From Chiloscyllium plagiosum (lineage: Eukaryota), in NCBI RefSeq assembly GCF_004010195.1, contig NC_057718.1:3322092-3386091 (forward strand): 64,000 bases of DNA, read 5' to 3'. A program made the position numbers and the translations under genes. Positions 1-45,009 of this stretch are shown piece after piece. The first letter of the stretch is position 1, and the number at the start of each line of letters is the position of its first letter. The notes below the pieces were generated by a model. The model did not search any database. It had not been told where the DNA came from and saw nothing but the letters and a program-made list of their open reading frames with translations.

Positions 1-905
1 CTGAATGGCCTACTCCTCCTCCGATTTTAAATGTTTCAGTAAGTTTGCAGCGGACACAAAATTGATGGAGTTGTGGATAGTGAGGAATGTTGTCAAAGGT
101 TACAGTGGGATTTTGATTGGTTGGGATGTTGGGTGGAGAAATGGCAAGTGTGAGGTGATACATTTTGGGAGGTCAAATGCAAGAAGAAAGAATAAATAAA
201 TGGCAAGACTCGTAGGAGTATTGATATCCAAAATAATCTTGGGATGCAAGTTCATAGCTCCCTGAAAGTGGCAACACAAGTGGATAAGATGGTAAAGAAG
301 GCAGATGGCATGCTTGGCTGCATTGGATGGTGCATTGAGGATGAAATTTGGCATGTCAATTTCCAGCTGTATAGCACTTTAGTTCAGCCATATTTGGGGT
401 ATTGTGTGACGTTCTAGTCACCACACTATTGGAAAGATGAGGAGACATTGGAGAGTGTGCAAAAGAGGAGTCTATAAGGAGAGGGTGGTCAAACTTGGAT
501 TGTTTTCATGAGAGAATCAGTGGCTGAGGGACAACCTTGTTGAAGTTTATAAAACTATGAGAGGCATGGTTACGATGGATAGTGAGAGTGTTTTTCTCAG
601 GGTGTAAATGTCAAATACAAGGGGACGTAGGTTTAAGGTGAAAGGGGTAAAATCTTTCAAGAAGATGTTGGAGTGAAGTTGATGACGCAGAAGGTGGTAG
701 GTGCCTGGACTGCACTGCCAGGGGAGGTGATAGAAATAGATTCAACAGCAGCACTTAAGAGGCATTGAGACAGACACATTTACAGGGAGGGAATAGAGAG
801 ATATGCACCATGGGTGGGCAGATGGGATTCATTTAGAATGGAATCATGATTGGCAGAGACTTGATGGGCTGAAGGGCCTGTTGCTGTGCTGGACTGTCCC
901 ATGTC
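1..905 (+). mobile_element. Decayed CR1 LINE 3' fragment(s)
   Basis: RT C-terminal remnants (SKFAADTK, KCEVIHFGRSN) and CR1-type tail gggctgaagggcctgttgctgtgctg. Confidence 0.8.
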
Positions 906-1499
906 CTATGTTGTTGAGAGCAGGATGCTGCACCAACTCCTCCATCATTTCCCCTCCCCCTACCACCCCCCCCCCCACCCAATGCCCACCAGCACTCCGA
1001 TGCCCCACCCTCCCCTACCCCTACCACCACTAATGAGACTGAAACACTGGACACTAATACCCTGTTTGTCAGCTGATCCTAGTGAACCATCCCCCATTAT
1101 CAGGGATGGACACTTTATTTATCTCAGTCAGTAATATTTCATATCGAGAAAACTATTTCTCAACAAACTCAGCAAAATATCAGAAATTTGATCCAAATCA
1201 CTGACTGCCTGTAAAAGGGAAAATGTGAGCATGGAGCCCCTCACATCATCAATGCTCCTTTCCAGGCCAACCAGCAGCACCACACAGAGTCCCTCTGTCC
1301 CCACAATCCAGACCAACCATCCAACTGCCTCTTGCCTCTTGCAAAGGGGAGCCAACTCCTGTCCACTCCCTGTTCCAGATCCTGGAATCCAGATTCACTC
1401 TCTGCCCCAACACTGAGACTCCACTGATCAGCATCACAACTGGGTGACTGTGCATATCACTGTCTCTACATGCACCTACTATCTCAGCTCAGTAAAAAC

Positions 1500-1705
1500 A
1501 ATGACTGCAGGTATTGGAAACCAGATACTGGATTAGTGGTGCTGGAAAAGCACAGCAGCCCAGGCAGCATCCGAGGAGCAGTAAAATCGACGTTTCGGGC
1601 AAACGCCCTTCATTAGGAAAGGCTTTTGTCCAAAACATCGATTTTACTGTTCCTTGGATGCTGCCTGAACTGCTGTGCTATTCCAGCACCACTAATCCAG
1701 AATAC
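1500..1705. repeat. Palindromic Penelope-terminus-derived element (about 85-bp arms)
   Basis: ctggattagtggtgctggaa...ttccagcaccactaatccag inverted arms, matching the 3' end of the Penelope element at 16300-16400. Confidence 0.75.
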
Positions 1706-2301
1706 TATCTTGGCTCTCCAATCCTTTGAGAAACATTGAGTCCACTTTCTGTTGGAAGGTCTCAGACACACATTGCAGCTCCTGGCGCTGCTCTCTCTGT
1801 GTCCCCCTCTGACTGTTCTGTTCATCAGCTTCCTCCCAGCACCAGTGGTTTCTCCTCCAGACTCTGATTATCTCTGTACTGTCCCCAGGGCCCCATTCCT
1901 GAGCACCTCATTATCATCATTTCACCCTCAGAAACCTGCTCAACATTTCCATCTCCCCCATCACTGCACAGTCCCTCCACCTCCTCCAAATTTCCCAAGA
2001 CTGTTTCCACTCTCTCCAAATGTCTGTCTAACATGAGGACACCATGAAGTTGAAACATCATCTTCAGCTCAGCAAACAGCCACACTCTACTAACCCACAC
2101 AGATATCTCCTGAGGCTAAAACCAGAGAGGGGCAATTTTGGGAAATTACTGAATCTGAGCTCAGCTTCCTCTCCATAGTGAATCCATTCCTGGGTTCACT
2201 CTAAAACAGTTCCTTAAACATCTTGATTAGAAACTTATCTTCAATTCATCCATTGGGCAAGAGGTTATTGCTGGAGAAATTGTCATGTAAATGTTACTTA
2301 C

Positions 2302-2646
2302 TGTTTAGAAAGAGCAGGCTTCCACTCCCATAGATCCCTCCCTGCACTGAGCAGTAATAGACCCCAGTGTCATTGGGCTGTACGTTTGTGATGGTCAGAA
2401 GGGCGCTGTTCCTTGAGGGGTCTCTGGAAAACCAGATTCGATTAGTGAGCTCTGGGCACCATTGTGTAGGATTCTTTTTTTCACATATGGATAACAGCTT
2501 CACGTGACTCCCTGGTTCTTGTCTGTACCAGTGAATATCAGTATGTGTCACTGTGGCGTTCCTCATGATGCACTCTAACTGGGCAGTGTGACCCTCAGTG
2601 ACACGTTCCACTATCAGAGACTGGAGAGGGACTGGACCAGATGCAC
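2302..2646 (-). CDS. Paralogous germline-joined VJ exon of a second receptor gene (downstream exons probably beyond the window start)
   Basis: On - strand tttttcccctaaag|GT GCA TCT GGT CCA...AAC A|gtaagt, 345 nt, phase 1/1. ...LECIMRNATVTHTDIHWYRQ...DTGVYYCSVQGGIYGSGSLLFLN. Confidence 0.92.
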
Positions 2647-17635: not shown

Positions 17636-17687
17636 CCAAAATAATGCAGACAGACAGGATCACAGCAAATAGAGTTCCACTGATCAT
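17636..17687 (-). CDS. Signal peptide (leader) exon MISGTLFAVILSVCIIL-G
   Basis: gagATG, 52 nt, hydrophobic core, ends G|gtaagt in phase 1, the standard IgSF leader layout. Splices in frame to the - strand V exon at 2646 (G|GT = Gly). Confidence 0.75.
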
Positions 17688-21120: not shown

Positions 21121-22689
21121 AGGCAGGGCGCCACACGGAACAGTCTGTCTTCATGTAAGACATGCTTTTACTCCTACTCTTTGCTTTCGGTCACTTTTCT
21201 TTTTTTTAATTCATTTGTAGGACTTGGGCATTGCTGGCTGGGCCACCATTGATAGCCCATCCCTATTTACCCTTGAGAAAGTGGTAGTGAGCTACCTTCT
21301 TGAATATCTGCAGTCCACTTGCTGTGAGTTGACCCACAATCCCGGTAGGGACGGAATTCCTGGATTTTGCCCCAACGACTGTGAAGGAATGGTGATATAT
21401 TTCCACGTCAGGGTGGTGAGTGGCATGGAGTGGAAGTTGCAGGTGGTGGCATTNNNNNNNNNNNNNNNNNNNNNNNNNNNNNNNNNNNNNNNNNNNNNNN
21501 NNNNNNNNNNNNNNNNNNNNNNNNNNNNNNNNNNNNNNNNNNNNNNNNNNNNNNNNNNNNNNNNNNNNNNNNNNNNNNNNNNNNNNNNNNNNNNNNNNNN
21601 NNNNNNNNNNNNNNNNNNNNNNNNNNNNNNNNNNNNNNNNNNNNNNNNNNNNNNNNNNNNNNNNNNNNNNNNNNNNNNNNNNNNNNNNNNNNNNNNNNNN
21701 NNNNNNNNNNNNNNNNNNNNNNNNNNNNNNNNNNNNNNNNNNNNNNNNNNNNNNNNNNNNNNNNNNNNNNNNNNNNNNNNNNNNNNNNNNNNNNNNNNNN
21801 NNNNNNNNNNNNNNNNNNNNNNNNNNNNNNNNNNNNNNNNNNNNNNNNNNNNNNNNNNNNNNNNNNNNNNNNNNNNNNNNNNNNNNNNNNNNNNNNNNNN
21901 NNNNNNNNNNNNNNNNNNNNNNNNNNNNNNNNNNNNNNNNNNNNNNNNNNNNNAGGAAGTACCAGATCTTCTTGAACCATATAACTGCGAAGGTAAACTT
22001 TACCAGCATAGGCCAGGAATAGCAGGTAAAGAAGTTACAATAGATAGAGGATCCTCTCAATCTGTGATGCTGAAAGATGAGGGGATAGAGTCATAGAGTC
22101 ATAGAGATGTACAGCATGGAAACAGACCCTTCGGTCCAACCTATCCATGCCTTCTGAAAGACTATTGCCAGAAAAGGTGCTAGTACCAGGAATTCAAGGT
22201 GAGACAAGAAGTGCTCAATTATGTAAAGTGAGCTCAGAATGTCCAGTGAAGAATAGAAAAGTCATGGTCGGAAGACTGGACAAACTCTTAGCTCTAGGAA
22301 TACAATTTGTCCTTGCTCACAATATAGCTGGCTCACAGATCAGAGTGCTACCTCCAGTGATTGGACAGACACTGGAAAAACAGGCAGTAGAATTATTGCA
22401 GGTCACATATCCTGGGATTTTTCCTAATGTAGGAAATGAGGCCACAAAGTCACCAGTTGAGAGCAAAGATTTCAGAGAAGAAAGTCCAAGTGGAATTAGT
22501 AGAGACCCTGTTTGTTCAGCTGGTTTACACAAATTGAGAGGCAGACAGATGATAATGCAGACATCTTTAGATCAGGAAAATTAACTGAGTTACAGCAGAA
22601 AAATGAAAATTTACAGCATCAAAAGGCATAAACAGAAAAAGAATTTGAATGTATCCTTGAATGTTATGACCTTAAAAATGAAGTCTTAA

Positions 22690-23500: not shown

Positions 23501-25544
23501 CAGTAGAAACCATATTCGGACAGAGGAGAAATGGGCAGAAGTTCATCAAGTCGTTTTGCCAGTGAGTTATAGAATGGAGGTGTTGTAAAAGGCACATGAG
23601 TTACCACTAGGGGTCATTTAGTTGTGAGAAAAATTCAAGTTAAAATAGAAAACATTTTTTCCTGGCCTGGACTGCATAAGTTTGCAGTTGAATTTTGCCA
23701 AACATGTCATATATGTCTGGTATTTGGAAAACCACATACAATAATAAAACCCTCACCTTTATTACCGATTCCTGCATTTGAGGAAACTTTTTAAAGAGTC
23801 TTAATTGATTGCATAGGACCACTACTTACAACAAAAAGTGGGAATCAGTATTTGTTAACAATAATGGGTGCATCCTCTCAATTTCCAGAGGCCGTTCTAT
23901 TTCACAGTATCACAGCTAAAAGCATTGCAGAGGAATTATTCACATTTTTCAATAGTTACGGACTTCCCACAGAGGTGCAATCAGATCAAGGATCAAACTT
24001 CGTATTTAACTTATTCAAGGAAGTTATGGACAGCTTAAGACTAAAACAATTCAAATCTACTGTGTACCATCCAGAGTCATAGGGAGTGCTGGAAAGGTGA
24101 CATCAGACAATAAAGACCATGTTGAGGACTTATAGTCAAGACTATCCAGATGATTGGGATAAGGGAATTCCATTTGTACATTTTGCAATAAGAGATGCTT
24201 TTAACAAATCAACCAAATTCAGATCATTTGAATTAGTTTTTGGGCATGAAGTGAATAGTCCACTAAAATTGATTAAGGAGAAATTGTTAATTTATAATTC
24301 AGAGACCACATATTTGGACAATGTGACGATTTTTTGACAATGATGAAAGAGAGTGGGAAGGTTGGTGAGATAGTATTTAAAAGTATCACAACATACAATG
24401 AAACAAAAAGCTGACAAGAAAAGTTCAAAAACGTGCAATTTTGCTGATGGAAATAAGGTTTTAGTGTGACCTTTCATCTTAGCTGAACCTTTAAAAGCAA
24501 GGTTTAGTCGATCTTATCAAGTGAAAAGGAAATTGAATGACTGAACTATTTGATGAGGACTCCAAACTGAAAGAAATCTCACAGAGTGTGTCATGCAAAT
24601 ATGCTCAAAAGGTACTTTGACAGGGATAAAAAGCAAGGGGAGAATGTGCTATTGGATACAACACAGTGCGAATAACCAAGTTCAGTGGCTTCTTAAGTGG
24701 ACATTCCTCAAAATAAATTAGACAATGAGAAAGTTGTCAAAAATTGGGATAAAATTGAATTACTTTACAAAGAAAAATCGAAATGACCTGAAAGAGAAAG
24801 ACTATCAAATGGGGAGATATGTGAAAATAAGCTGGGAAGTACGAACCTAATTATGATGATCTCCCTATCACATTCTCAGCTAACTTGCCCCCAGAGCCCC
24901 ACCCCTCTCCCATTTCTCTCTCAGCATTCCCAGCCCACAAGCCTCATTCCTGATGAAAGGCTTATGCCTGAAACATCGATTCTCCTGCTCCTCAGATGCT
25001 GCCTGACCTGCTGTGTTTTTCCAGCACCACACTCTTGACTCTGATCTCCAGCATCTGCGGTCCTCAGTTTCTCCAATTATGCATGATGTAGACATAGGAG
25101 ATGCTTTTCCAACTAAGCAACATCCTTGTTGACCTAACCCTCTAAAGTTGGCACAGGTTGAAAAGGAGATTGAATGCTTGCTCCAAGATAACATAATCAT
25201 AGTGAGTTACAGTGACTTGAGCTCACCCACAGTAATGGTGGCAAACCCAGATGGTACCCAATAGATATGAGCAGACTATTGCAAGGTCAATGCAGTTACA
25301 AAGACTGATGTCTATCTGATTCCACCTTTGGAAGACTGTTGAGAAGGTGTAACAAGCAACTTATATTTCTCAGTTGGTCTTACTCAGAGGTTACTGGCAA
25401 GTAAGGGCAAAGGCAATTTTGGCTTTCATAGCACCAAATGGACTGTATCTGTTTGTAGTCATGCCACTTGGTATGAAAATGTGTCAGCCACATTTCAGAG
25501 ATTAACCATTGCCAGATTACCTAATTGTGTCATATATATGCAGA

Positions 25545-28500
25545 TAGAACATAGAACATTGAACATTACAGCACAATACAGGGCCTTCAACCCTTGATGT
25601 TGCATCGACCTGTGGAACCAATCTGAAGTCTATCTAAACTACACAATTCCATTCTCATCCATTTGCCTACCCAACGACCATTTAAATGCCCTTAAACTTG
25701 ATGAGGCTACTACTGTTGCTGGCAGTGTGTTCCATGCCCCTCTCACTCTCTGAGTTATGAACCTATCTCTGACATCTGTCCTATGTCTGTCACCCCTCAA
25801 TTTGTGATAGCCATTACCATCTGAGGAAAAAGGCTCTCACTGTCCAACCTAACTAACCCTCTGATTATTTTACATGTCTCAATTAAGTCACCTGTCAACC
25901 TTTTTCTCTCTAACAAAAGCAGCTTCAAGTCTGTCAGCCTTTCCTTGTAAGAGATTCCCTCCATACCAGGCAACATCCTAGTCAATCTCCTCTTAACCCT
26001 TTCCAAAGCTTCCACGTCCTTTCTATAATGCAGTGACCAGAACTGTAGACAACATTCCAAATGTGGCTGCACCAGTGTTTTGTTCAGCTGCAAGATGATT
26101 TCATTGTTCTGAAACTCAATTCTTCTACCAATAAAAGCTAATATGCCTTCTTAAAAACTCTATCAATCTGGTTGGCAACTTTCAACAATATATGTACCTT
26201 TAGACTGAGGACTTTCTGCTCACCTACATGACTGAGCATCTTACCATTCACCCTGTACTGTGTATTCTTGTTACTCCTTCCAAAGTGAATCACCTCACAC
26301 ATTGCCACATTAAACTCCATTTACTACTTCACAGTCCAGCTTTACAGATCATCTTTGTAAGCTTATCTGTGTCTCTCTGTAACCCATAACATCCTTCATC
26401 ACTATTCACAACTCTACTCGCCTTTGTGTCATCTGCAGATTTTACTAACCCATCCTTTTATGCCCTCATTAAGATTATTTATATAAATGACAAACCACAG
26501 ATCTAAAACAGGTCCTTGTTGTACCCCACTAGTTACTGAATTCCAGGATGAACATTTCCCATCACCCACCATCCTCTGTCTTCTTTCAGCTAGCCAATTT
26601 CTGATCTAAATCGCTAAATCACCCTCAGTCCCATACCTTCGCAATAGCAAACCGTGGGAACCTTACCAAATACCTTACTAAAATCCATATACACCACATC
26701 AACTACTTTACCCACATCAATCTGTTTGGTCAGCTTCTCAAAGAACTCAATAAGGTTTGTGAGGCGTGACCTACCCTTCACAAAACCATATTGACTATCC
26801 CTAATCACCTTATTCATCTCTAGTTGATTATAAATCTTATCACTTATAACTCTTTCCAACATTTTCCCCCAACTGAAGTAAGGCTCACTGGTCGATCATT
26901 TACAGGGTTGTCTCTACACCTCTTCTTGATCAAGGGAACAACATTTTCCATCCTCCAATCTTCTACCACGATTCCTGTAGACAATGATGCTATAAAGATC
27001 AAAGCCAAAAGTTCGGCAATCTCCTCCCTGGCTTCCCAGAGAATCTAGGGTAAATCCCCTCTGGCTCAGGGAATTTATGTATTTTTACAATTTCCAGAAT
27101 TGCTAACATATCCTCCTTATGCATCTCACTCCCATCTCATCTTGTAGCCTGTATCTCAGTACTTTCCTCGACCATATTGTCTTTTCCTAATGTGAATACA
27201 GATGAAATGTGCTAAGTTAGTGCTTCCCTCATCTCATCTGACTCTATGCACAACTTCCCACTACTACAATTGATTGGCCTGAATCTTACTCTTATCATTC
27301 TTTTATTCCTGATATACACATAGAAGAACTTCAGGTTTTCCTTGATTCTATCCGCCAATGACTTTTCATGTCCCCTCCTGGCTCTTCTTAGCTCTTTCTT
27401 AAGTCTTTTCTGGCTAATGTATAATTCTCAAGTGCCCGAACCAAGCCATCATATCTCATTCTAACATAAGTCTTCTTCTTTGGCTTGACAAGAGATTCAA
27501 CTTCCTCAGTAAATCATGGCTCCCGCACTCGACAACTTTCTCCCTGCCTGACAGGTACATACTTCTCAAGGACCTGCAGTCACTGGTCCTTGAATAAGCT
27601 CCACATTTCAATTGTGCCCAACCCCTGTATTTTTCCTCCCCATGCTTTGCATCCGAAATCTTGTCTAATTGCATCGTAATTGCCTTTCTCCCAGCTATAA
27701 CTCTTGCCCTGTGGTATATACCCCCCTTTCCATCACTCAGGTAAACACAACCGAATTGTGGTCACTATCACCAAATTGATCACCTACCTCCAAATCCAAC
27801 ACCTGGCCAGTTTCATTAACCAGTTCCTAATCTAATACAACCACGTCCCTTGTTGGCCTGTTGATCTATTGTGTCAGGAAACCCTCCTGCATACATTGGA
27901 CATAAACTGACCCATCTAAAGTACTTGAACTATAGTAATCTCAGTCAGTATTTGGAAAGTTAGGGTCCCCGATAACAACTATCCTGTCACTCTTGCTCCT
28001 ATTGAGGATCATCTTTGCTTTCCCCTCCTCTACGTCTCTGGAACTATTTGGAGACCTATAGAAAACTCCCAACAGGTTAGCCTCTCCGTTTCTGTCTCTC
28101 AGCCCATACTACTTCAGTAGAGAAGTCCTCAAGCATCCTTTCTGCAACTGTAATACTGTCCTTGATGAACAGTGCCACACCATCTTTTACCATTTTCTCT
28201 GTTCTTAATGAAACATCTAAATCCTGGAACCTGCAATAACCATTCCTGTCCCTGTTCTATCCGTGTCTGTGAAATGGCCATAACATCAAAATCCCAGGTA
28301 CCAACCCATGCTGCATGCTCACCACCTTATTCCAGATGCTCCTGGCGTTGAAGTAGACACACTTCAAACCAACTTTTTGCCTGCCAGTGCCTTATTGCGA
28401 TCTTGAAATCTTAGTTCTCACTTCATCCCTCATCCTCCACTATGCTTGAACTACAATTTAGGTTCTCATCATCCTGCTAAAATGTGTTTAAACCCACCCT

Positions 28501-29460
28501 GAGTGCGTTAGCAAATTTTCCCCACAGGATATTGGTACCCCTCTGGTTCAGGTGAAGACCGTCCTGTTTGCGGAGGTCCCAACTCACCCAGAAAGAGCCC
28601 CAGTTATCCAAAAAACCAAAACTCTCCCACCTGCACCTTCCCTATAGCCACGTGTTCAACTCCTCTCTCTTCCTATTCCTCACCTCGCTAGCATGTGGCA
28701 TAGGCACAAAAAAAAAAGAGACAACAACTCTGTTTGTTCTAGCACTAAGCTTCCACCTTAGCTCCCTGAATTTCTGCTTTAAATCCCTATCTTTCTTCCT
28801 ACCTGTGTCATTGGTGCCTATGTGGACCATGACTTGGGGTTGCTCCCCCTCCCCCATAAGGATCAGGGACATCATAAACCCCGGCACCAAGGAGGCAACA
28901 CGCCAAACATTAGTCTCTCTCATTCCCACAGAACCCCTTACCTATCCCCCTCACTGTGGAGTCCCCAATGATTAATGCTCTGCACCTCTTTCTCCTTCCC
29001 TTCTGAGCAGCAGGGACAGACTCTGTGCCAGAGACCTGTGCCCCAATGCTTACCCCTCTTAAGTCATCAGTCCTCAACAGTATCTAAAAAGGTGTACTTG
29101 TTGTTTCGGGGAATGGCTACAAAGGATCTCTGAACTGCCTGCTGTGGCCCATTCTGTCCCCTGATGGTAACCCATCTACCTTCTTCTTTTATGTGAGGTG
29201 TGACGACCTCCCTCTAACTCTTCTCAATAATCCCCTCCCCATCCCAAATGATTCAAAGTTCATCCAGCTCCAGCTCTATTTCCTTAATGTATTTTCTGCC
29301 GAGCTGGAGTTGGGTGTACTTCTCACAGATGCAGTCAGCATGGACACTCTTGGTGACCTTTACTTCCCATATTCTGCAGGAGGAGCATTTAACTGCCCTA
29401 ACCTCAATTCCCACTGTTCTAAATTCCCAACAAGACTACTGAAAAAACTTTTAAAAAGTC
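25545..29460 (-). mobile_element. Near full-length decayed CR1 LINE (ORF1 esterase plus EN-RT) inserted in the Gypsy RT
   Basis: VMVHIGTNDTG (ORF1), SQYGFVKGRSRLTNLIEFFE, VYMDFSKVF, VQPHLECCLQFW; (ttctatg)n tail at 25545. Confidence 0.88.
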
Positions 29461-31364
29461 ACCTAATCAATTGGCGCACACAAACTTTTTTTTTTGATTA
29501 GAGGAGGAAGTTGGGTGGGAGACACTACCCGAGTAGTGTTTTGGGTAAATCAACCACCCAACTATAAAGCCTCACTTATCCAGCAGTCCCATGTCTGCTC
29601 CTGCTCAGTGTGTGATCCGCCTAAACACGAGGTAAACCTTTATACCTTTTAAAACGTACCTACCCATCGGGCCTCTGGTCCTCACTGTCCCTTCTCCCAT
29701 TCCAACTGCCGCCGATAAAAAGATGACCTGGTGATTTTTAGTCACACCTGGAAGGAACATTGGGAAATTTTTTTAGAATTGTTCGATCGACTTGAGATGG
29801 CAGGCTTGGTGAGATGCATGGCGAAAAGTGAATTTGTCAAAGTCCAAGTCACCTTCTGGTCCATGTTATTGGACAAAGACAAATAGCCCCACGGGATGCA
29901 AAAACAAATGTAATTGGAGAGTTTCCCACACTATCGACAAAAAGAGCAGTACTATGATTCCTAGGATTGAGTGAATTTTATTGAAAATTTGTACCAAATT
30001 TCGCAGTGTGGCTGCTTAACCCACTGAATTGCTAAAGAAAGACAAGACGTTTCAGTGGACAGCCGACTGTCAGAAGGCATTTGACAGCCTGAAAGCTGTG
30101 TTAACCATTGTCCCAGTATTAGCTACACTTAATTACACAAAGCCATTCAAGGTGGCTATTGACACAAGTGATGTGGGTCTCAGTGTTGTGCTTTTGCAGG
30201 AAGATGACGAGAAGATAGAAAGACCTATTGGGTATTTCTCCAGGAAATTAAACATTCATCAGCAGAAATATTTGACAGTTGAGAAGGAGACTTTGAGCTT
30301 AGTGTTGGCTTTACAACATTTCATTGTTCATGTTACCAGGAGCATATCAGAAACAATCATTTACACTGAACATCACCCATTGAGATTTGTGGAGAAATTT
30401 AAGGACAAAAATTCCAGCTTGTTTAGATGGAGCTTTGAAAATCGTACATGTGGCAGATAGCGAAAACATGACTGTCGATGCATTGTCGAGACCCGAATGA
30501 AAAACGAACACGTTCAATGGCAGGAGTAAACAGACAAACAGAATGTAGTAGATCACGTTTGCATGATTATTGTTAATGTAACGTATATGTGTGTTATAAA
30601 GTACTAAATTTAGGACTAATGGTTTTTAAATGAAGTCCTCTTTGGATATTGATTCTTCTCCTTTTTCAGGGGGGAGGTGTGATACGCAGCTTCTCTCTGG
30701 TTTGGTTTGGTTTTGGCAGTTTGTCTATTCACTGAAAGCAGTCAGACAGTTGTAAACTGCTGGACCCAATGAAGCAGCTCCATGCTGATCCTCTCTCTGA
30801 CTTCTCTCCAGTATGACCCTGTGTTTAATTTTACCTTTTGTTCCAAGAGAAGTCTATGAGGATTGTTGCAAATATTTGGAATAGCATCATGAAGTTGGGA
30901 TGAGCTGCTGGGTTTTTCAGATATGTTAAGTTAATAGTCCCAATCAGGGAACTCGAGTTCTATGAGGTCCACCTGGCTGACCTCATTACTGTCACTACAA
31001 AGAAATAATGATATATTCCCGAAACAAGATGATGAATGGTTTGGAGGGGAACTTGCCCGTTTTGTGTTCTCATCTATCTGCTGCCCTTATCTTTCTGGAT
31101 GGAAATGAATCTGAGTTTTGATCCTGCTGCAGCAAGATTGGCATGTCCAAAATGTTGATCAAATTCTGACGAGAGTTCAGAAAAATTCATTTAACACACT
31201 GTTTATTTATTTATTTCTCTTTATATTGATTGATTATTTTATCTGAATCAATCACAGATGCATCTCAAACATTCAGTGCAACAACGGGTTCTCTCTGTTT
31301 AACTGAAAACTCCTACCACCTTGTCAGATCCTTTTAATATGGCAGTACAGAGAGTCTGCTCTTA

Positions 31365-32700
31365 GAGTCATAGAGTCATGGAGATGTACAGCATGGAAAC
31401 AGACCCTTCGGTCCAACCTGTCCACGCCGACCAGATATCCCAACCCAATCTAGTCCCACCTACTAGCATCATATGCTTCCAAACCCTTCCTATTCATACA
31501 CCCATCCCTCCACCACTTCCTCTGGCGGCTCATTCCATACACGTACCACCCTCTGCATGAAAATGTTGCCCCTCAGGTCTCTTTTATATCTTTCCCCTCT
31601 CACCCTAAACCTATGCCCACTAGTTCTGGATTCCCCGATCCCAGGGAAAAGACTTTGTCTATTTATCCTATCCATGCCCCTCATAATTTTGTAAACCTCT
31701 ATAAGGTCACCTCTCAGCCTCCGACGCTCCAGGGAAAATAGCTCCAGCCTGTTCAGCCTCTCCCTATAGCTCAAATCCTNNNNNNNNNNNNNNNNNNNNN
31801 NNNNNNNNNNNNNNNNNNNNNNNNNNNNNNNNNNNNNNNNNNNNNNNNNNNNNNNNNNNNNNNNNNNNNNNNNNNNNNNNNNNNNNNNNNNNNNNNNNNN
31901 NNNNNNNNNNNNNNNNNNNNNNNNNNNNNNNNNNNNNNNNNNNNNNNNNNNNNNNNNNNNNNNNNNNNNNNNNNNNNNNNNNNNNNNNNNNNNNNNNNNN
32001 NNNNNNNNNNNNNNNNNNNNNNNNNNNNNNNNNNNNNNNNNNNNNNNNNNNNNNNNNNNNNNNNNNNNNNNNNNNNNNNNNNNNNNNNNNNNNNNNNNNN
32101 TCCTTGTAAATCTTTTCTGAACCCTTTCAAGTTTCACAACATCTTTCCGATAGGAAGGAGATCAGAATTGCAAGCAATATTCCAACAGTAGCCTAAGCCA
32201 ATGTCCTGTACAGCTGCAACCTGACTTCCCAACTCCTGTACTCAATACTCTGACCAATAAAGGAAAGCATACCAAACGCCTTCTTCACTATCCTATCTAC
32301 CTGCAATCCACTTTCAAGGAGCTATGAACCTGCACTTCAAAGTCTATTTGTTCAGCAACACTCCCTAGGACCTTACCATTAAGTATATAAGTCCTGCTAA
32401 GATTTACTTTCCCAAAATGCAGCACCTCTTTATCTGAAGAATTAAACTCCATCTGCCACTTCTCAGCCCATTGACCCATCTGGTCCAGATCCTGTTGTAA
32501 TCTGAGGTAACCCTCTTCNNNTCGCATCCAAATCATTTATGTAAATGTCAAAAAGTAGAGGGCCCCGCACCGATCCTTGTGGCACTCCACTGGTCACAGC
32601 GTCCAGTCTGAAAAACAACCCTCCACCACTACCCTCTGTCTTCTACCTTTGAGCCCATCTGTATCCAAATGGCTAGTTCTCCCTGTATTCCATTAGATAT
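31365..32700 (-). mobile_element. CR1 3' fragment spanning a gap, ending about 50 nt upstream of exon V1
   Basis: LFSLERRRLRGDLIEVYKIM, WAEKWQMEFN. Confidence 0.85.
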
Positions 32701-32749
32701 AGCCGGGAATCTTGTGGGAATAAACATACTGTTACTTTTTTCTTCAAAG

Positions 32750-33094
32750 GTAACAATGGTCCAGTCCTTCTCCAGTCTCCGAGCCTGGAAAGTATCATCA
32801 AGGATCACACTGCCCGGTTACAGTGCACCATGTGGAATGCCACAGTGACACACACCAATGTTCACTGGTACAGACTGTCCCAAAAGCAAATTCTGGAGCC
32901 GGTTTTAACACATCCAAGAAGTGGCTCCACACAACAGTACCCAGGATTCACAGAGCGATTCCAATCTTCCAGAGACTCCTCTAGTAACAGCTTCATTCTG
33001 ACCATCAAAAGCGTGCAGCCTAGTGACGCTGGGGTCTATTACTGCTCAGTCTGGGGAAGGATCTATGGGACAGGAAGCCAGCTCAATATCACCA
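32750..33094 (+). CDS. Exon V1: V-set Ig domain with built-in J segment
   Basis: ttttttcttcaaag|GT...ACC A|gtaagt, 345 nt, phase 1/1. (G)NNGPVLLQSPSLESIIKDHTARLQC...VHWYR...DAGVYYCSVWGRIYGTGSQLNIT. Confidence 0.93.
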
Positions 33095-36000
33095 GTAAGT
33101 AGAGTTTACATGACAATCTCCTCCAGTAATAACCTCTTACCCAATGAATGAATGGGACATCAGTTTGTGATCAAGAAGATTGAGGAGCTCTTGAAGAGTG
33201 ATCACAGAGGTGGATTCTCTGTGGGGAGGAAGCTGAGCTCAGGTTTAGCAATTTATTTAATTGTTTTGTGAGATGTAGGTGTCACTGGCTGGGCCAGCAT
33301 TTATTGCCTCTCCTTAATTGCCCTTAGGAAGGTGGTGCTGAACTGCCTTCTTGAACCACTGCAGTGACTCATTGGTTGCCATTCCTGGGTTTAGGTCGGG
33401 CTCCGACACAATCTATTAAGACTCTGCTAAACGGTTCTTCAAAAGCTGCAATCAGTATTAAAGGTGAAGCTTTAATTAAGGGTTGGAGATTCCCCAAGTC
33501 CTGACATTGACCAGCCCATCTGGTAAAATGTAACATCTTTTTATAATCCTGACTACTAAAAATGTTTTAAGATTTTTGAATGTGTGTTCTTCATCCTTAA
33601 ATGAACTGCCATTGGAATTTCATGAGTTAGTTTATAAAATTTCATTCTGGTCTCAGATGGAATGACCACCCAATGGATCACTGTCTATTCCTCATCACCT
33701 GGCATTTGGAATCATCTTTATTTCCTCATTACTACATTGTCTTTCAAACAGTAACACTCAGAGACTTGCTGATTTCATTTCTGAGGATAAAAACAGAAAT
33801 TTCTGGAAAATCTCAGCATCTGTGGAGAGAAATCAGAATTAATATGCTGGGTCCAGTGACCCTTGTACAGAACTAATGGCAATGAGGAAAAATGATGGTT
33901 TTTATCCAGAAAATGGGGTGGGGAGGAGGGTGAAGGTAAATGATAGATGGAGATAGAGCCCAGTGTGAGAGTAAAGCTGTTGGACAGACAAAGAAGGGGG
34001 TTATGGCCAGTCTGGGGGAATGAGCAGCTGCTGATTGGGAGTTAATGGCTGACAATGGGTAGTGTATGGTAATCATAAAGCCTGGTTTATGGGGAGGGGG
34101 AAAGCATGGGAAAAGATGCTCACACTCTAAAATTGTTGAACTCAATTATTAATTCCAGAAGGGTGCAGGGTAACCAAGTGGAAAATGAGGTACTGTTGTT
34201 CCAGCTTGCTCTGAGATTCACGAGAGCACTGCAGTGAGACTGAGACAGAGATGTTGGCCAGGAACACGATGGTTTGTTGGACTCGCAAGCAACTGGGAGG
34301 TTAGGGCCTTTTTTGCAGACAGAATGGAGGTCTTCTGAGAAGTGGTCACCCAGTCTGCGTTTCATTTCCTAAATGAAGAGGAGCCCACATTGTGAGCAGT
34401 GAATACAGTTTGTCTCATCACAGAATACTCAGAGGCCTGGATAGAGTGGACAGGGAGAAGATGTTTATCGGAGAGAGTAGGATCTGGGACACAGCCTTAC
34501 ACTGAAGGGACAATCAGTTACAGCTGAGATGAAGAGGAATTTCTTCAGACAAAAAGTGGTAAATCTGTGGAACTCATTGCTGCAGAGAGCTGTAGTAGAG
34601 GCCAAGTCATTGAGTATATGTAAGACAGAGATAGACAGGCTCTTAAGAGCAAATGGCTCAATAGTTATGGGGAGACAGCAAGACAATGGGATTGAAACAT
34701 ATTAGCCATGATCGAAAAGCAGAGCAGACCTGATGGGCTGAATGGCCTAATTCTGTTCCTATATCCTATGTCCTTATGGTCTATAATCTCATGGTTAGTT
34801 TGAATAATTAACCCCACTGGTTCACTCTGATACTCTTACCATCTGTCCTTTCTCTTTAACTCTTAAGATGCAAGTGTCCCAGTCCTTCACCAGTCTTCCG
34901 TCCTGGAACGTGTCACCAAGGGTCATACTGTCCGGTTACAGTGCACCATGAAGAAGGCCACAGTGACACACACCAATGTTCACTGGGACCGGCAGCAATC
35001 AGGGAATAAGAAGGAGTGGGTTTTAACATATGACATGAGGAACATTACACAATGGAGCCCAGGATTTACTGAGCGTTTCCAGTCTTCCAGAGAATCCTCC
35101 AATAACAGCTTCATTCTGACGATCACAAACGTGCAGCCCAGTGACACTGGGGTCTATTTCTGTAAAGTGTGGGGAGACATCAGTGGGAATGGAACCCAGC
35201 TGACTGTAACAGGTAAGTCTTGTATACCTGAGAATAATCTGATACAGTAACCATTTCCACATGGATATATTGGAGAGGGAAATGTGTTAAATTCCTCTGG
35301 TAAAAAGTAAGCAGAGGTCTCAATATGAACATAGAACAATTCTCAGCTTTTACTCACAGATAGAATAAACTGTTTCTTCTCTTGGACCAGTTCCTCAATC
35401 TCAAACTCTTTCTCTTCTGTCTGTCTTTCTGCTTCACCATCTCATTTGTTCTCAGTGTTGGATTTAACATTCTCCTGTCTCTGTCTGGTTTTGTTTCATT
35501 CATTCTTGGGATGGGGCCTTCACTGACCGGGCTGGTACTCATTGTTCATCGTGAACAACCCTTGAGAAGAAATGTCTTCTCTGCCACAGGAAGCAGCTGA
35601 GGCCAAAACATTGAATGTCTTCAAGGAAGAGTTAGATATAGTTCTGAGGACTAAAGGGTCCAAAGGGTAAGGGGAGAATGTGGGAACAAGGGACTGAGTT
35701 GGATGATCACCCATGATTATGTTGAAAGGTGGTGCATGAGTTGAATGGCCTACTCCAGGTCATATTTTGGATGTTTTGAGAAGGTCATGGTGAGCTGCCT
35801 TCCTGCGCTGTTGTGGTCCTTTTGGTGTTGGTACACTGGACCTGGTGCATTGAAGGAACGATGATGATGATACACTGTATATATCTGAGCATAAGTCGAT
35901 CTCATGAAAAGGTCACCCTTACTTTTTGTCGACATATCCAGAATTTCAACTGTTACTTGAGTATACAGGGGGAACCTCAATTATCCGAAAGGAACGATGA

Positions 36001-39000
36001 TGATGATACACTGTATATATCTGAGCATAAGTCGATCTCATGAAAAGGTCACCCTTACTTTTTGTCGACATATCCGGAATTTTCCATGTAAAAGTCAACC
36101 CTAGTTCTTCACAATTAACAGTTCAACATTGATGAGTCAGTGTGCCTGTCCATTGCACTCCACTCCAGCTTTCCATTCTGGGTCTTCCAGTCCACCAGCC
36201 ATTACACTCCGATCCAGATATTCAGAATTACTGTAATTCTTATTTTGTTTTATTTGTTTTGACTTTAATTTTGCTTCTGCCAATGATATATTATGAATTT
36301 TGACCGGCATGAATTTCAGCCCCTCAAATGTGATATCCCTGTTATAGTCAAACCCATAAATTTAACCGTAAAAAATAGTCAAAAAAATTCAACTGTTACT
36401 TGAGTATACAGGGGGAACCTCAATTATCCGAATGAGATGGGCGGGCACTATTTCGTTCAGATCCCCAACTGGTACCCATTGTCTATCAGTGTAAAAGGGA
36501 GTGAATATTGAAGGTGTTAGTTATGGCGCCAGTCAGGTGAGCTACATTCTTCTGCATGCCATGAAGCTTCTTGAGTGTTGTTGGAGCTGCACCCATCCAG
36601 GCAAGTTGTACCATCATCCTCCTGATTTCTGTTTTGATGATAGATAGTTAAAAATCACATACCACCAGGTGAAAGTCCAACAGGTTCACTCGGAAGCACT
36701 GGCTTTCAGACTGCTGCTCCTTCATCTGGTTGTTGTGGAGTATAAGACTGTAAAACATAGAATTTGTTCCTCATTCCCGGATTGCCCTTAAACTGAGTCA
36801 CTTGCCTGTTCATTTCAGAGGGCAGTTAGATAAAACCAAATTGCTGTGGGTCTGGAGTCACATGTAGGCCAGACCAGGTAAGGATGGCAGATTTCCTTCC
36901 CTGAAGGAGATTAGTGAACCAGATAGGTTTTTACAACAATTGATGGGAACATCAGGAATTAAGGTGATATGTTTCCAGCTCTCAATTAGCCTGGAATTGT
37001 TATGTATGATTGTGTTATGACTCATTTGTAAGTAAATTCAATAAAGAAGCAAATGGTTAGTGCCTTGTTTGGAGAAGCTGTTGTCCATGAGAGGTCTGGG
37101 TGGTATAAGGAATGACTCTGTAATTATCTAATGCTGTGTTCACGTAGTGAAACTTTCGGTGCCAAGGCTGCACACAGGAGCTCAACATTACTCCATCAGC
37201 CGGTATTTATCGTTAATTTGAGAGTTTAACAGAATACAAACAGATTGGTTTTATATGAGCTGGCATTCCTTAGACATTCACTTCCATGAGTCAGTTCCAC
37301 ATTAAAACTGGATCTGTTTCTCAATGTCATTTAAGCTGAAGGTTAAACTGGGTTCCAGTGTAACTCATTAAGATGTGAGTAATTTATCCGGGAAATTTCA
37401 AACTCTCAGCTCTCAAGACTTTAGGCCATCATTTCCCACAACCCTCTGCAGCTCCTGTTCTGTTCAATGACACTCCCATCTCCTCCTCCGATGTCCTTGT
37501 CCTGAGCTAAACCCTTCCTCCCCCCCACCCTGGTTACTCCCTTTCTTATGGCCCTCATTCATTCCCTTAGACCAAGAGACACAGACAGAGCGACGTTGGA
37601 ACAGGAGGAGGCCATTCAGCCCAACATGCTTCCTCCACCATTTAATTAAATGATGGATGATCTGATATTAATCTCAACTCTACATTCCTACATATCCCTG
37701 TTCACCTTTCACTCCCTGGGTCATCAAGAATCTCCCTTCCTCTGCCTTAGAAAGATTTCAAGATTCTGCATCCACTGCTTTTTGATGAAGGGAATTCCAA
37801 AGACTCACAACCCTCTGTGAAAAAAAACATTTCCTCATCTCTGTCTTCAACGTGCACTCCCTTATTTTTAAACTCTGCCCCCTAGTTCTAGATTCTCCTT
37901 TCCACGTCCACCCGGTTCAAGGCCCCTCAGATCTTACAGGTTTCAATGAAGGCCCCTCTGAGCCCAATGGGATCCAGAGTGAACACATCTGGAAGAAGGG
38001 TTTGCAGCCCGAGGAAGTTTGGATCCAAGTGGAGGAGCTGGAGTCTGAGCTGCAAACATTATGTCACATCAGGGAAGGGGAAAGTTCCCTGGAAACATTT
38101 TTCCTAAGGGTTCTCCTACATCTTGGATTCGTGAATTGGAGATTAGTCGTGGATCAGGGACAGGAAGCTGTGACTGCAGGTGAGGACGGTATGGGTCCCA
38201 GGTCTTTCTAACAGTGAGACCAATGTCACAGGTTTGTGTTTGGGACCTGACCCCAAGGATTCCCCGACCCTGGGATAATAACCCGGGTCAGGAATGGAAG
38301 GGAAAGTCTGAGGTTCCAATCAGAAGGGCCTCAGTTTGCCCATTACTGACTCAATTTCAGGCAAGTGCAGTCAGGGATTATCTGGCTCAGAGACAGAATC
38401 AGAGAATCATAGAAACATTCCAGTGTAGAAGGAAACCATTCAGCCCATCCTGTCTGCACTGACTCTTCAAATGAGCATCATTCTCAACTGCCAATGTCCT
38501 GCTCTCTCCCCACAGCCTTGCACACTGTTAGGATACAGAATTGGATGTGCAACAGTGAATCAGAGAGGGTGTCCTCAGGGAGCATCGATTACAGGCTGTT
38601 TGAAACTTTCAGCATTTTCCTTTTGGTTTTTGGTGAGAATGAAACTTTTTAAATGGCTGCTCAGTCTATTCCAATCAGTCAGCTGTGAGCATTGTGAACT
38701 TCTCCTCTCGATAGTTTATTCACAAAATGAATCACAGCAGCAAATTGTAAAGCATTCAACTGATGGATATGTTTCAAATCATTCTCTCTCAAATTACAAA
38801 TAGCAATATCCAGACTGGAAGCTTCAGTTCCTTCTCTGCAAATCATCATTTAACCAGGAGGAGACTTTAGAAAATGTTACAAATCCAGTTACCTTATTTT
38901 TTTCTCTTCAATATGAACAGATCCATTCGCTGATCCAGTCCTTATTGAGGATCATGTAGTTAGCAAGGTAGCAGAGGGTGAAGCTGTCAAGTTTCAGTGT

Positions 39001-42000
39001 GCCGTGTACAATGTCAGTGTGATTGACACTGATGTCCACTGGTACCACCAGCGACCTGGCAGCAACTGGGAGTGGGTGATAAGCCACTTTGTGAATGGCA
39101 CCCACACCAAGACTCAGGGTTTCCCTGATCGTGTTCAGCTTTCCAGGAATGTCAGCAGGAACAGTTACATTCTGAGCCTTGTGAATGTGACTCTCAATGA
39201 TACTGCTGTGTACAGCTGCAGTGTGTGGAGCTACATCTATGGAGCAGGGAGCCAGTTCATTGTAACTGGCAAGTAAATGGGAGGGAACACTGGTGTGAAC
39301 AGGGAAGGGAGCACCCAGCTGCTGTGCTTCATCAGTGGAAGGGCAGAATGGTCATCAAGGCCAGGTATTCCCAAGGCTGGATGGGGTGTGGCTTGGAGAG
39401 GAACTTGCAGGGGGTGGTGTTCCCATGTATCTGATGCCCTTGTCCTTCTAGATGGAGGAGGTTGTGGGTTTGGAAGGTGTGCCTGAGGATGTTTTGTGAA
39501 TTTCTGCACTGTATCTCATAGATAGTGCACAGCAGGGAGTCAGTGGTGGTGAGAATGAGTGCTTGCAGCTGTGGTGGCCAATGGTGTCAGTTGCTTTGAC
39601 CTGGATAATGACAAGATCATGAGTATTGTTGGAACTGCCCCCATCCAGGCAAGTGGGGAGTATTCCATCACACTCTTGACTTGTGCCTTGTCGATAGTGG
39701 GCAGGCTTTGGGGAGTCAGGAGGGGAGTTACTGTCATGAGGAAATCAAAATTAATGTTGACAATCTTAGACATTGGCCAGACTGAAGTGACTGTGTGTGT
39801 GTGTAACATTCTGATATTTTACAGAAGAGTCTTCTCATGGTATTCCCTGGACTTCAGATTCCATTTTAATCATTGGCACCATTCTGGGCTTCACTGTCTT
39901 GATCTGCATTGTCCTGCTCACATTTTTCCTTTGGAAACAAAAGCTGTGTTCATCAGTAAAGGACTCCTCACAAGGGTAAATCACATTTCATCTTGGTTTG
40001 ATTCTGTCACTTCACAGTCATTATTTTTTGACATTGAGGGTGATTGTTTTTAGTGAGTGCTGATATTCCCACTGTAGCACACAGATCCATTGCAAATGGT
40101 GGGTCAGTGACTGTCGAGACCATGCCTTACATCCAGATGCCCAATCACTGCCAGTTTGCTCTATCTCTGGTATCACACATCCTCCAGTGCCAGGCCACAG
40201 GTACCTGCTGGTGACAGTCAGAAAGCTTTGAATGGGTCAAGCATTAGACATCCCCTGCAGGATCCCCATTAGGTACTGGATCATTACCTACCGAGCCCAG
40301 TGTCAGCGTCTGTCTTGGAGGCTCACTTGCAGTACAGTACCTCCAGCTGGGATGAACAAGTGAGTGCCAGACCACTCGGTCCAACAGCCCCTGCTGTCCT
40401 TTTGCTTCCACATCAGCAGAAAGCCCAAATCACATTTCCCTATGCTGTTCCCCCATCCATTCAATCCACTTAATCCTCACACCCCTCTCCAAATGAATCC
40501 TCAACATTGACATCAATCCTCCACCTGCCATTAGTTTGGAGTGACTCCCACACCCTCCCCACCTTCTGGGTGAAGAGATTTCCAGAACCCATGGACTCGA
40601 TCTGTTTGTATCCATGATCCCTCATTCTTCACCCCCTCAATCGTCTGTTTCCACCTCATTCATTGTTCCTTCAAAGGATTTCAAAAATATGATCATAGTC
40701 ATAAAGTGTGGTTCATCCAATGATATAAAGACGTTCTGAAGTCTTTCTTTGTAATTCCATTTGATGTACTGGGCAGCATCCCAGTGAGTTGTTGCCCATA
40801 AGAAATAGGAACAGGAGTAGGCCATTCAACCCCTAAAACCTGCTATCCATCCAATAGGATCATGGCTGATCCAACATTCCTCTCATCCATTCTCCTGCCT
40901 TTCTTTATTACCCCTTTTCCCCAGCTGATCAAGATCTCCATCTCAAAACTTCAAAAACTCTGCCTCCACAGCTCTCCATGGCAAGGAGTTCCAAAGACTC
41001 ACTACCCTCTGAAAAAAGAATTATTCTGAGACTATGCCCTCTGGCACTAGACTCTCCCATGGGGGGAAACACTCTCTCAACATTAACTCTGTCAAGCCCC
41101 TTAAGAATCCTGCATGTGTTAATGCGATCACCTCTCATTCTTCACACCTCCAGTGAGTAGAATCCCAATCTGTTCAGGCTTTGCTCATAAGCCTGAGGGT
41201 TAATCCTTGCTCACTCTCACTTTTCGCTGGTTCTTGTTCCATTACAACAAAGTCGCTGGTAAATGATTGGGGTTATTGTTATTTTTCAATCTGTTCTGAC
41301 TCCTCTCTTGGCCAGTTGAGACTTAAACCCAGATGATCTGTCTCAGAGACAGAGATACTGCCCCTTCACAGAGACCCCTTAACAATCAAAGCTGGACTTG
41401 AACCAGAAATTTTTGATCAGATCACAAGTCAGAGGAAAGTCACAAATCTACTTGCTGATGATTTGCTCCAGCTCCATTCGAACATTAGTTTCTTTCTTGG
41501 TCTGTGCCAGCTGACAGTGCTGCAATGTCTTGAAGAAATCTCTCCCTTCCACAGTCGGGAACAACAACAACTTGGCCAAGTTTCCCAGCATGCCCTCTAG
41601 TTCAGTCAAATTCTTTCCTTTGTTGTTCACATAAATTCTTTTTAGAAAAATATCCAAGTTTTCAGTTCATCCTTTTCATCTTTAAACTGGTCTCGAAAGT
41701 CCATGGTGAAAAGTATAAAATCCATCATCCCCGAGACTGTGAAGTAGATAGTGTTGTTCTGTGGTAAATGTGCAATAAATCAAATGTGTTGCATTTATTT
41801 AGGAGTCCTGTTGAAGACCAGAACGTTGTGTATACAACAGTAAATGGTAAGCAAACTAATTCTACCATTATCACAACATTGGGCAGGAATTACTCTGTTC
41901 CAAACATCCATTTTACACAGTTGGATTCTTGATGTCATTGATAAGCTCACGGTTAGAGCGGCTCATTTGTCTGATTGACACAACGTACTATAATGGGGAG

Positions 42001-45000: not shown

Positions 45001-45009
45001 AACAGTTAA
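32750..45009 (+). CDS. Spliced gene model: type I membrane IgSF receptor with 3 germline-joined VJ domains, TM and ITIM-bearing tail. Exons 32750-33094, 34868-35212, 38921-39268, 39825-39975, 41803-41846, 43755-43798, 44845-45009; leader exon not found on this strand
   Basis: Every exon has a polypyrimidine/AG acceptor and every internal exon a GT (one GC) donor. Phases chain 1-1-1-1-2-1-0 with no stop until TAA at 45007-45009. Total 1442 nt, about 480 aa without leader. Confidence 0.85.
33790..34780. mobile_element. Penelope fragment (-) and CR1 tail (+) in the V1-V2 intron
   Basis: MKRRLGDHFSEDL GIY-YIG remnant; CR1 tail gatgggctgaatggcctaattctgttcctat. Confidence 0.6.
34868..35212 (+). 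CDS. Exon V2: V-set Ig domain with built-in J segment
   Basis: ctctttaactcttaag|AT...ACA G|gtaagt, 345 nt, phase 1/1. ...RLQC...VHWDRQ...DTGVYFCKVWGDISGNGTQLTVT. 71/115 aa identical to V1 by manual alignment. Confidence 0.93.
36011..36411. mobile_element. Tc1/pogo(Tigger)-type MITE
   Basis: Imperfect TIRs ctgtatatatctgagcataagtcga ... tcaactgttacttgagtatacag. Confidence 0.5.
38921..39268 (+). CDS. Exon V3: membrane-proximal V-set Ig domain with built-in J segment
   Basis: tttctcttcaatatgaacag|AT...ACT G|gcaagt (GC donor), 348 nt. DPFADPVLIEDHVVSKVAEGEAVKFQC...VHWYHQRPG...DTAVYSCSVWSYIYGAGSQFIVT. Confidence 0.9.
39825..39975 (+). CDS. Stalk/transmembrane exon
   Basis: atattttacag|AA...CAA GG|gtaaat. 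Translates (E)ESSHGIPWTSDS-ILIIGTILGFTVLICIVLLTFFLW-KQKLCSSVKDSSQ: a 24-aa hydrophobic uncharged span followed by basic stop-transfer residues, in phase with V3. Confidence 0.88.
41803..41846 (+). CDS. Cytoplasmic exon 1 (ITIM VVYTTV)
   Basis: gcatttatttag|G AGT...AAT G|gtaagc, 44 nt, phase 2/1. SPVEDQNVVYTTVN matches the ITIM consensus (I/V/L/S)xYxx(L/V/I). Confidence 0.78.
41995..42527. mobile_element. Penelope fragment with inverted arrangement
   Basis: RLEEECLIFRLGTLQPQGMN on - strand; gagctgaaaatgtgttgctggaa / ttccagcaacacattttcagctc inverted pair. Confidence 0.75.
43755..43798 (+). CDS. Cytoplasmic exon 2 (spacer)
   Basis: ctgttttctttcag|TT...GTG|gtaagg, 44 nt, phase 1/0. VQTRSSEQAAVPPVV. 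Supplies exactly the phase change needed between the flanking exons. Confidence 0.75.
44500..44810 (+). mobile_element. DeuSINE-like (SacSINE1/AmnSINE1-type central domain) remnant
   Basis: gcagtactgagggagtgctgc...ggatgtaaaacatccc...aaaacagaccatctg...gggatcttgctttgtacaaat resembles the Deu domain, recalled from memory. Confidence 0.55.
44845..45009 (+). CDS. Terminal cytoplasmic exon with two tyrosine motifs (CHYAEV, SEYAVI)
   Basis: tgttcgattccag|CTG, phase 0. LAEGECHYAEVHFHRQGSSQPTVTAAERSSEYAVIKRARNCSSTGPFHSAARNS*. Same HYAxxxF...S/TEYxxI layout as CD33/Siglec-type inhibitory tails. Confidence 0.85.
   Translation: MAEGECHYAEVHFHRQGSSQPTVTAAERSSEYAVIKRARNCSSTGPFHSAARNS

Follow-up and report, generated by a model that had tools for sequence, protein, structure and literature searches.

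The window analysed here is a 64,000-nt stretch of the Chiloscyllium plagiosum genome (G000:C9:3322092-3386091; window position equals C9 coordinate minus 3322091), and it carries parts of two receptor genes built from germline-joined VJ exons. On its minus strand lie the leader and the first VJ exon, termed V0, of a gene that was mapped with family proteins on the window and the 109 kb to its left and whose tail carries an ITAM. On its plus strand lie V, TM and tail exons of an ITIM-type gene. The coordinates of the features are collected in Table 1.

Table 1. Features of the two genes, in window positions unless a C9 coordinate is given
Feature	Position	Strand	Evidence or remark
V0, first germline-joined VJ (V-set) exon	2302..2646	-	X4 contigs with 0 differences
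Start of the intron after V0, ~160 nt	2142..2301	-	homologous to introns after V0-, Vb- and V1-class exons
Intron from V0 leaving the window toward the rest of the ITAM gene	1..2301	-	exon mapping
Leader exon, 52 nt, phase 1	17636..17687	-	P0010 residues 1-18 at 100%; X4 junction to V0
Partial (truncated) Vb copy	C9 3310751-3310899	-	exon mapping
Vb	C9 3310055-3310399	-	
Alternative stop exon	near C9 3305916	-	
V1'	C9 3296793-3297137	-	
V2'	C9 3294680-3295024	-	
V3' (broken)	C9 3288937-3289287	-	
TM exon of ITAM gene	C9 3288246-3288396	-	
First three tail exons of ITAM gene	C9 3286420-3286463, 3281896-3281969, 3279380-3279421	-	
Fourth tail exon of ITAM gene	from C9 3278177 down	-	ITAM split between last two tail exons
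500-N assembly gap	21454..21953	.	between minus-gene leader and plus-gene start
Mirror block	24114..40242	+	main alignments 87-93% to minus gene C9 3305657-3287979
V1	32750..33094	+	96.8% to V1'
V2	34868..35212	+	95.9% to V2'
V3 of plus gene	38921..39268	+	frame open; GC donor non-canonical
Conversion-like tract (intron and TM exon)	39318..39982	+	2 mismatches/665 nt against C9:2.690 Mb ITIM gene
TM exon of plus gene	39825..39975	+	hydrophobic stretch without charged residue
Tail exon 1 of plus gene, ITIM VVYTTV	41803..41846	+	homologous ITAM-gene exon has AVYENV
Tail exon 2 of plus gene	43755..43798	+	
Last tail exon of plus gene, ITIM-like HYAEV and SEYAVI	44845..45009	+	

The minus-strand ITAM gene and its transcripts

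A 345-nt VJ exon had been noted on the minus strand, and V0 proved to be such an exon: it is bounded by AG and GT, is in phase 1/1, keeps an open VJ frame with a J-like end, matches the Pfam V-set profile (E 4e-16) and corresponds at 100% to part of P0010, a database model labelled Chiloscyllium plagiosum. Its V and J parts lie within a single exon and not in the RSS-flanked segments of rearranging receptors; no RSS nonamer was found in 1801-3200, and the lone heptamer falls within coding sequence. Sequence and fold searches of the PDB returned generic antibody V domains only, and an Atlas search returned generic V-set clusters; the predicted structure model has a pLDDT of 77, with the J strand modelled poorly. 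V0 also carries two extra cysteines private to it and sits on a long tree branch (0.53).

The original prediction had pointed to the sequence left of the window as the place to look for further V, TM and tail exons, and a full chain of them was found there on the minus strand, giving the order leader, V0, Vb, V1', V2', V3', TM and four tail exons, with the ITAM tail exons 44 kb left of the window. All V exons of the gene are phase 1/1, and V1', V2', the TM exon and the four tail exons are all open with canonical splice sites. V3' carries two frameshifts and one in-frame stop, and the gene product would therefore work only if V3' were skipped; with V3' left out, an open frame of 608 aa runs through the ITAM. 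The database model P0010 has 251 aa without TM or tail, stopping after Vb at the alternative stop exon. V-set but no C1-set matches were obtained for the family proteins P0002 and P0007, and the gene maps as V, TM and tail exons only. Within the leader-V0 intron, a 984-nt direct repeat (window 7702-8685 and 10230-11213, 99.8%) adjoins a 949-N gap and an 82-nt tandem array and is possibly an assembly duplication.

Two motifs stand in the tail, which has ~85 residues from four exons: YENV, and YxxL-x7-YxxL with its D at -3. A phase-0 intron after Y-M interrupts the latter within its first tyrosine module. According to the available text of PMC4536121, classical ITAMs are always split within the first tyrosine module, and the minus-gene tail conforms to both the consensus and the exon rule given there. 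The same motif is present in P0002 and in homologues of horn shark, stingray, whale shark and catshark. The gene lacks the usual stop after the ITAM, which is kept in a paralogue, and thereby adds 14 residues; a 505-N gap lies just beyond the ITAM exon. The TM stretch contains no K, R, D or E. Membership of the adaptor-coupled class (KIR-S, Siglec-14, NKp30 type) was rejected on the uncharged TM and the long tail. The tail has a built-in ITAM and V1' and V2' are 96-97% identical to V1 and V2 of the ITIM-type gene, and the earlier guess of an activating counterpart therefore holds, but not in the form expected of it, with a charged TM residue or a short tail.

Transcripts were assessed in run X4, a single run whose library type is not on record. 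One contig leaves V0 at its exon border and goes on in the leader, which is the leader-V0 splice, and in the V0 region the contigs cover exon bins alone. Another contig carries 255 nt of V0 with 0 differences, the next paralogues having 32-36. A V2' contig begins at the exon border, with 2 differences against 12 for V2, and an exact piece of the minus-gene TM exon was also recovered. The joints listed (15 of 390) include none between V2' and TM, and no read covers the ITAM exons, which lie outside the stretch examined. V3' is thinly covered, with mapping swamped by repeats, and none of the listed joints (15 of 390) runs across it, so that its thin cover does not count toward skipping. Samples of 2% and 6% from the single-cell runs X8 and X9 held 0 reads, a depth too low to bear on expression. 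Run X5 contains a V0 variant, 98% identical, that is an allele or an unassembled copy. An orphan exon or a misassembled piece of the same gene, named beforehand as what would undo the prediction, is contradicted by the existence of downstream exons, by the leader-V0 splice and by the arguments given below against a flipped piece of the plus gene.

V0 compared with V1 and V2

The DNA after V0 had been said to match that after V1 over about 150 nt, and this match is real: the intron after V0 is 80% identical to 33096-33254 over 159-160 nt, with a score of 156 against a shuffle maximum of 32 (n=500). The three protein motifs quoted for V0 likewise agree better with V2 than with V1. Both likenesses, together with a borderline runs test (p 0.05; longest run p 0.64), would fit a V0 that is a mosaic of V1 and V2, made by gene conversion with the plus-strand gene, but each proved to be a property of the family. 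With the end of the V0 exon and its intron as query, all 40 of the sequences scored (53 candidates) matched, and V1 stood at rank 13 among the 39 non-self matches. Across the ~0.67 Mb of cluster DNA examined for intron and motif classes, the intron segment follows 6/6 V0-class, 12/14 Vb-class and 9/9 V1-class exons (27/29 in all), and 0/21 V2-class and 0/12 V3-class exons (0/33). Of 40 non-V3 exons free of stops, 16, 21 and 22 carry the respective 'V2-like' motifs, whereas V1's versions are confined to two of these 40, V1 itself and its mirror copy, and V1 is the derived one.

Whole-exon comparison gave V0 DNA identities of 71.9% to V1 and 72.2% to V2 and protein identities of 49% and 52%, the informative sites divided 37 vs 38 between the two, and no tract of V0 stood well above the 72-80% background. 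Its closest kin are the other V0-class (first-position) exons, at 86-89% and with 600 nt of flank on either side. The intron match is family-wide and the motifs are consensus, and they are therefore no evidence of conversion, which leaves the mosaic reading highly improbable. The shared intron and the 'V2-like' motifs are the outcome of old exon duplication and family consensus. The nearness of the motifs to V2 thus stands as an observation, with no special tie to V2 behind it, and the proposal that V0 is the inverted counterpart of V1 falls, the true counterpart of V1 being V1', 25 kb left of the window and 96.8% identical.

Probable pairing with the plus-strand ITIM-type gene

The plus and minus genes mirror each other over about 16 kb, and their homology spans the TM exon and the first tail exon and then ends. 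The V1 and V2 exons of the pair differ by 3.6% and the introns by 7.8% (Fisher p 8e-5), with 10 synonymous and 15 non-synonymous codon changes, which suggests that V1 and V2 were constrained once duplicated; duplication and purifying selection suffice, without conversion, to explain the lower divergence of the exons. The subfamily has 12 TM exons, with ITAM exons found beyond 4 of them, ITIM-type exons beyond 6 and no tail beyond the remaining 2, and opposite signalling motifs thus occur among members, as in paired families. The V1 and V2 exons of opposite members are more alike than those of same-type members, the distal V of the partner being absent from the assembly. Trees unite this ITAM/ITIM pair with 100/100 for both V1 and V2, and a second such pair in the V1 tree with 100/99. 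Monophyly of the ITAM genes was rejected for V1 (p-AU 1.5e-10) and V2 (8e-74) and weakly for TM (0.02), and was not rejected for V3 (p-AU 0.32). Collectively, the minus and plus genes likely form an on/off immune-receptor pair. V3 is damaged in 2/3 other ITAM genes of the subfamily, whose other exons are partly broken too, and many activating copies may therefore be decaying.

The plus gene shows features of its own. The donor of its V3 is GC at 39269-39270, where the paralogues have GT; its last exon runs 14 codons beyond the paralogues' stop (44965-45009); and a 94-nt direct duplication (99%) lies at window 35853-36082 in the V2-V3 intron. A conversion-like tract at 39318-39982 is 99.7% identical to another ITIM gene 0.67 Mb away, with flanks at about 85-97%, and points to a recent gene conversion between two inhibitory genes. 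The suggestion that conversion helped to shape the cluster is thus borne out in the plus gene, at its TM exon and the intron between V3 and TM, with a third gene as partner, but not at V0, where it had been placed.

The head-to-head orientation of the pair rests on the join across the 500-N gap. The plus gene has neither leader nor first (distal) V exons in the assembly, and these may sit in that gap. Elsewhere in the cluster, genes lie on opposite strands without any gap, and a second head-to-head pair, ITIM(-)/ITAM(+) with V1 in common, lies at C9:2684110-2759580 (L081-L085, L063-L064, L123-L124), also with a 500-N gap between its genes and with V2 and V3 of its ITAM member broken. A multigene cluster with duplication and both strands in use is therefore as originally proposed, but the inversion of this particular pair hangs on the gap join.

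The leader, V0 and Vb could in principle be the flipped 5' half of the plus ITIM gene, or two near-identical 5' halves could have been collapsed into one. The plus gene is leaderless and begins right past the 500-N gap, the second pair has a gap of the same size in the same place, the X5 variant offers a 98%-identical V0, and in P0018, the closest epaulette-shark model, V1-V2 and an ITIM tail are linked to a domain resembling Vb (84%). However, the edges of a further gap, of 260 N between Vb and V1', are adjacent, about 300-530 nt apart, in 5/7 paralogous introns, with the same order in the others. It follows that Vb continues into V1' and that V0 belongs to the ITAM gene, which makes a flipped block unlikely; a collapse would leave the pairing model intact, and we regard either event as improbable. 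P0018, with the order Vb-V1-V2-TM-ITIM, no V3 and V2 joined directly to TM, is a precedent for a V3-less form, and suggests that the gap hides a Vb belonging to the plus gene.

Exon anatomy, motifs, the leader-V0 splice, the mirror block and the pairing in trees are observed directly. The model built upon them, which we consider probable, is that V0 is the membrane-distal domain of an ITAM receptor, an activating partner made by skipping V3', the fifth V exon, and matching the ITIM gene at 96-97% in its inner domains. The mRNA would be L-V0-Vb-V1'-V2'-TM-tail without V3', and its product a type I membrane protein of four V domains and an uncharged TM, in no need of a DAP12 or FcR-gamma adaptor. 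A soluble two-domain isoform is present as well in the database model of the gene. ITAM signalling is established to proceed by Src-family phosphorylation and Syk/ZAP70 recruitment, and clustering by ligand would set off the same steps here, opposed by SHP-type phosphatases on the ITIM/ITSM-like motifs of the partner. The least supported step concerns the ligand, probably a molecule of microbial origin that takes advantage of the inhibitory receptor, by analogy with the decoy logic of CEACAM3; V0 would recognise it through its C'-C'' and CDR3 face, which changes fast. Across six V0-class exons, pN/pS was 0.311/0.232 in C'-C''-D, 0.381/0.135 in CDR3 and 0.096/0.176 elsewhere, values that are descriptive only since they pool non-independent pairs; the X5 variant has four amino-acid changes inside residues 59-65 and two silent changes elsewhere. 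These patterns point to diversifying pressure on a putative binding face of V0, whose ligand is inferred.

The damage in the gene has led us to weigh another reading, in which it was once activating and is now decaying, with the soluble leader-V0-Vb-stop form as its sole product, or none, and the ITAM tail as a relic. The three lesions in V3', the lost stop codon, the truncated Vb duplicate, the end of P0010 at the alternative stop exon, the long branch and extra cysteines of V0 and the numerous pseudo-exons in the cluster are consistent with such a course. Yet V1', V2', TM and all four tail exons have kept open frames and canonical splice sites, contigs of X4 agree with V2' at its borders and with the TM exon, and the exons of the pair are better conserved than the introns. 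Decay is accordingly the less probable course, though a more serious contender than a flipped half, and a working activating partner remains our preferred reading.

The poly-VJ cluster, its relatives and its meaning

Among the best 150 scored matches to the V0 exon (481 candidates), at least 122 lie on C9 at 2.02-4.26 Mb, on both strands and many with stops. ITAM- or ITIM-tailed homologues were found in sevengill, horn, cat, smooth-hound, white, basking and carpet sharks and in rays, and a chimaera VJ falls inside the family clade on a long branch. The pair belongs to a cluster of ~2.2 Mb that evolves by birth and death and whose poly-VJ receptors, which do not rearrange, are common to sharks and rays. 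In a profile search of 1.84 billion proteins, 10 of the top 150 matches were named: seven from elasmobranchs, including the minus gene's own model, one from a chimaera and, from a snake and a hake, two long records with multiple V domains, and restriction to cartilaginous fish is therefore not proven. Database labels of the family (IGSF3-like, perlecan-like, pIgR-like, kappa-like) are misleading.

Several further loci were recorded. A second subfamily (L071-L076; C9 3.524-3.528, 4.214-4.218 and 4.265-4.269 Mb) differs in its TM exon and carries an ITAM-type tail of its own, like P0051, P0056 and P0063. At L116 (C9:2074859 onward), a VJ exon is followed by ~1,400 more open codons rich in N-x-S/T, possibly a mucin-like stalk, as in P0024. 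L105 (C34:26.078 Mb) is an intact divergent VJ gene like P0103 and P0101, L106 (C19:35.346 Mb) a truncated pseudo-exon nearly identical to the C9:3236854 copy, and L107 (C45:12.483 Mb) a single-exon VJ gene that trees place outside both the poly-VJ family and the light chains.

Within this genome, the antigen-receptor V closest to the family, at 41%, belongs to an Ig light-chain type on C39, which we take to be sigma-cart/type I/NS5 and which has both joined and RSS-bearing copies. Two clusters of one light-chain type were noted there (L103 and L104; C39:27.81 and 27.68 Mb). The germline-joined cluster, conserved in whale and zebra shark, has a short CDR3-J end like that of the poly-VJ family, and the unjoined cluster carries an RSS heptamer. 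In two trees (99/94, 98/93), the family is the sister group of the C39-type light-chain V and is not nested in it; these trees used LG+G4, include several long branches and hold one representative per other receptor type. In the tree used for p-AU tests, from which 11/52 rows had been dropped to thin near-copies, origin from the germline-joined light-chain subclade was rejected (p-AU 0.03), and monophyly of all light chains was not rejected (p-AU 0.127). The sister relation to light-chain V is thus supported, but not exclusive. A split leader and a joined copy with a short CDR3-J end are also found in the C39 light chain (labelled 'lambda-1 light chain-like'), unlike which the poly-VJ genes have no C1 and no RSS and possess tandem V exons, a TM and a signalling tail.

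Other receptors whose V or VJ does not rearrange are PRARP (V or V-C1, the latter in non-avian species), NKp30/NCR3 (one VJ and a charged TM), NITR (V and I domains) and MDIR (CD300/pIgR-like), and some of these come in both inhibitory and activating forms; the poly-VJ family is set apart from them by their descriptions and not by sequence comparison. UrIg and UrIg2, as the available text of PMC12227049 presents them, are likewise non-rearranging single-exon VJ genes of elasmobranchs with a split leader, but are one or two genes of one VJ and several C1, linked to the MHC or to the antigen-receptor complex. Unlike them, the poly-VJ family has no C1 after a single VJ and forms a large cluster with ITAM/ITIM tails. 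Teleost NILTs resemble it in being clustered, in their 1-6 V-type domains, in ITIM or intrinsic ITAM tails and in secreted forms, and TVYAT-type tail motifs occur in both NILTs and poly-VJ homologues (bioRxiv 10.1101/2022.04.21.489081, the main text of which does not contain the word shark). NILT domains resemble CD300/TREM/NKp44 with a CxnC, as that text describes; in the poly-VJ family, with its J-like ends, the two canonical cysteines alone are invariant and the extra CxnC pair of NILT, CD300 and MDIR is absent.

The closest functional parallel is with the CEACAMs as covered by the available text of PMC2832619. CEACAM1 and CEACAM3 are ITIM and ITAM members with near-identical V-type ectodomains, CEACAM3 uses its own ITAM and not a charged TM, the homology of paired opossum CEACAMs runs through the TM and first tail exon before the tails diverge, and conversion, inversions and birth and death mark those genes as they do the poly-VJ cluster. 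However, CEACAMs combine one N domain with C-type domains, whereas all V exons of the poly-VJ family are VJ exons with J-like ends; trees place the family beside Ig light-chain V, and no CEACAM turned up in any sequence search. By this analogy, the poly-VJ pair would work like CEACAM paired receptors without being a member of them, and likewise like the NILTs, whose domain features it also lacks. Searches of the literature turned up no account of such a poly-VJ family with ITAM and ITIM tails from sharks or rays, which a supplement or subscription paper could list, and the family is large and apparently undescribed.

It was proposed in PMC2193156, as far as its available text goes, that germline-joined Ig genes could turn into novel receptors. 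We hold as an evenly balanced proposition that cartilaginous fish have a large KIR/CEACAM-like paired system of their own, of which the window holds one pair. Its tandem ready-joined VJ exons would have a common ancestor with the V of one Ig light chain, and its self-contained ITAM/ITIM tails would have been swapped onto shared ectodomains. It would be either an innate family whose origin lies in an early V exon of antibodies or a sister, still surviving, of the exon split by RAG. V0 itself is one damaged-but-transcribed member, and the intron clue that drew attention to it is ordinary. As the V exon of the family is sister to Ig light-chain V, it bears on whether non-rearranging VJ genes are pre-RAG relics or derive from antibody genes. 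Mammals and bony fish are well known to have paired innate receptors; if real, the poly-VJ family would provide candidates for the NK or myeloid receptors of the oldest lineage that has adaptive immunity.
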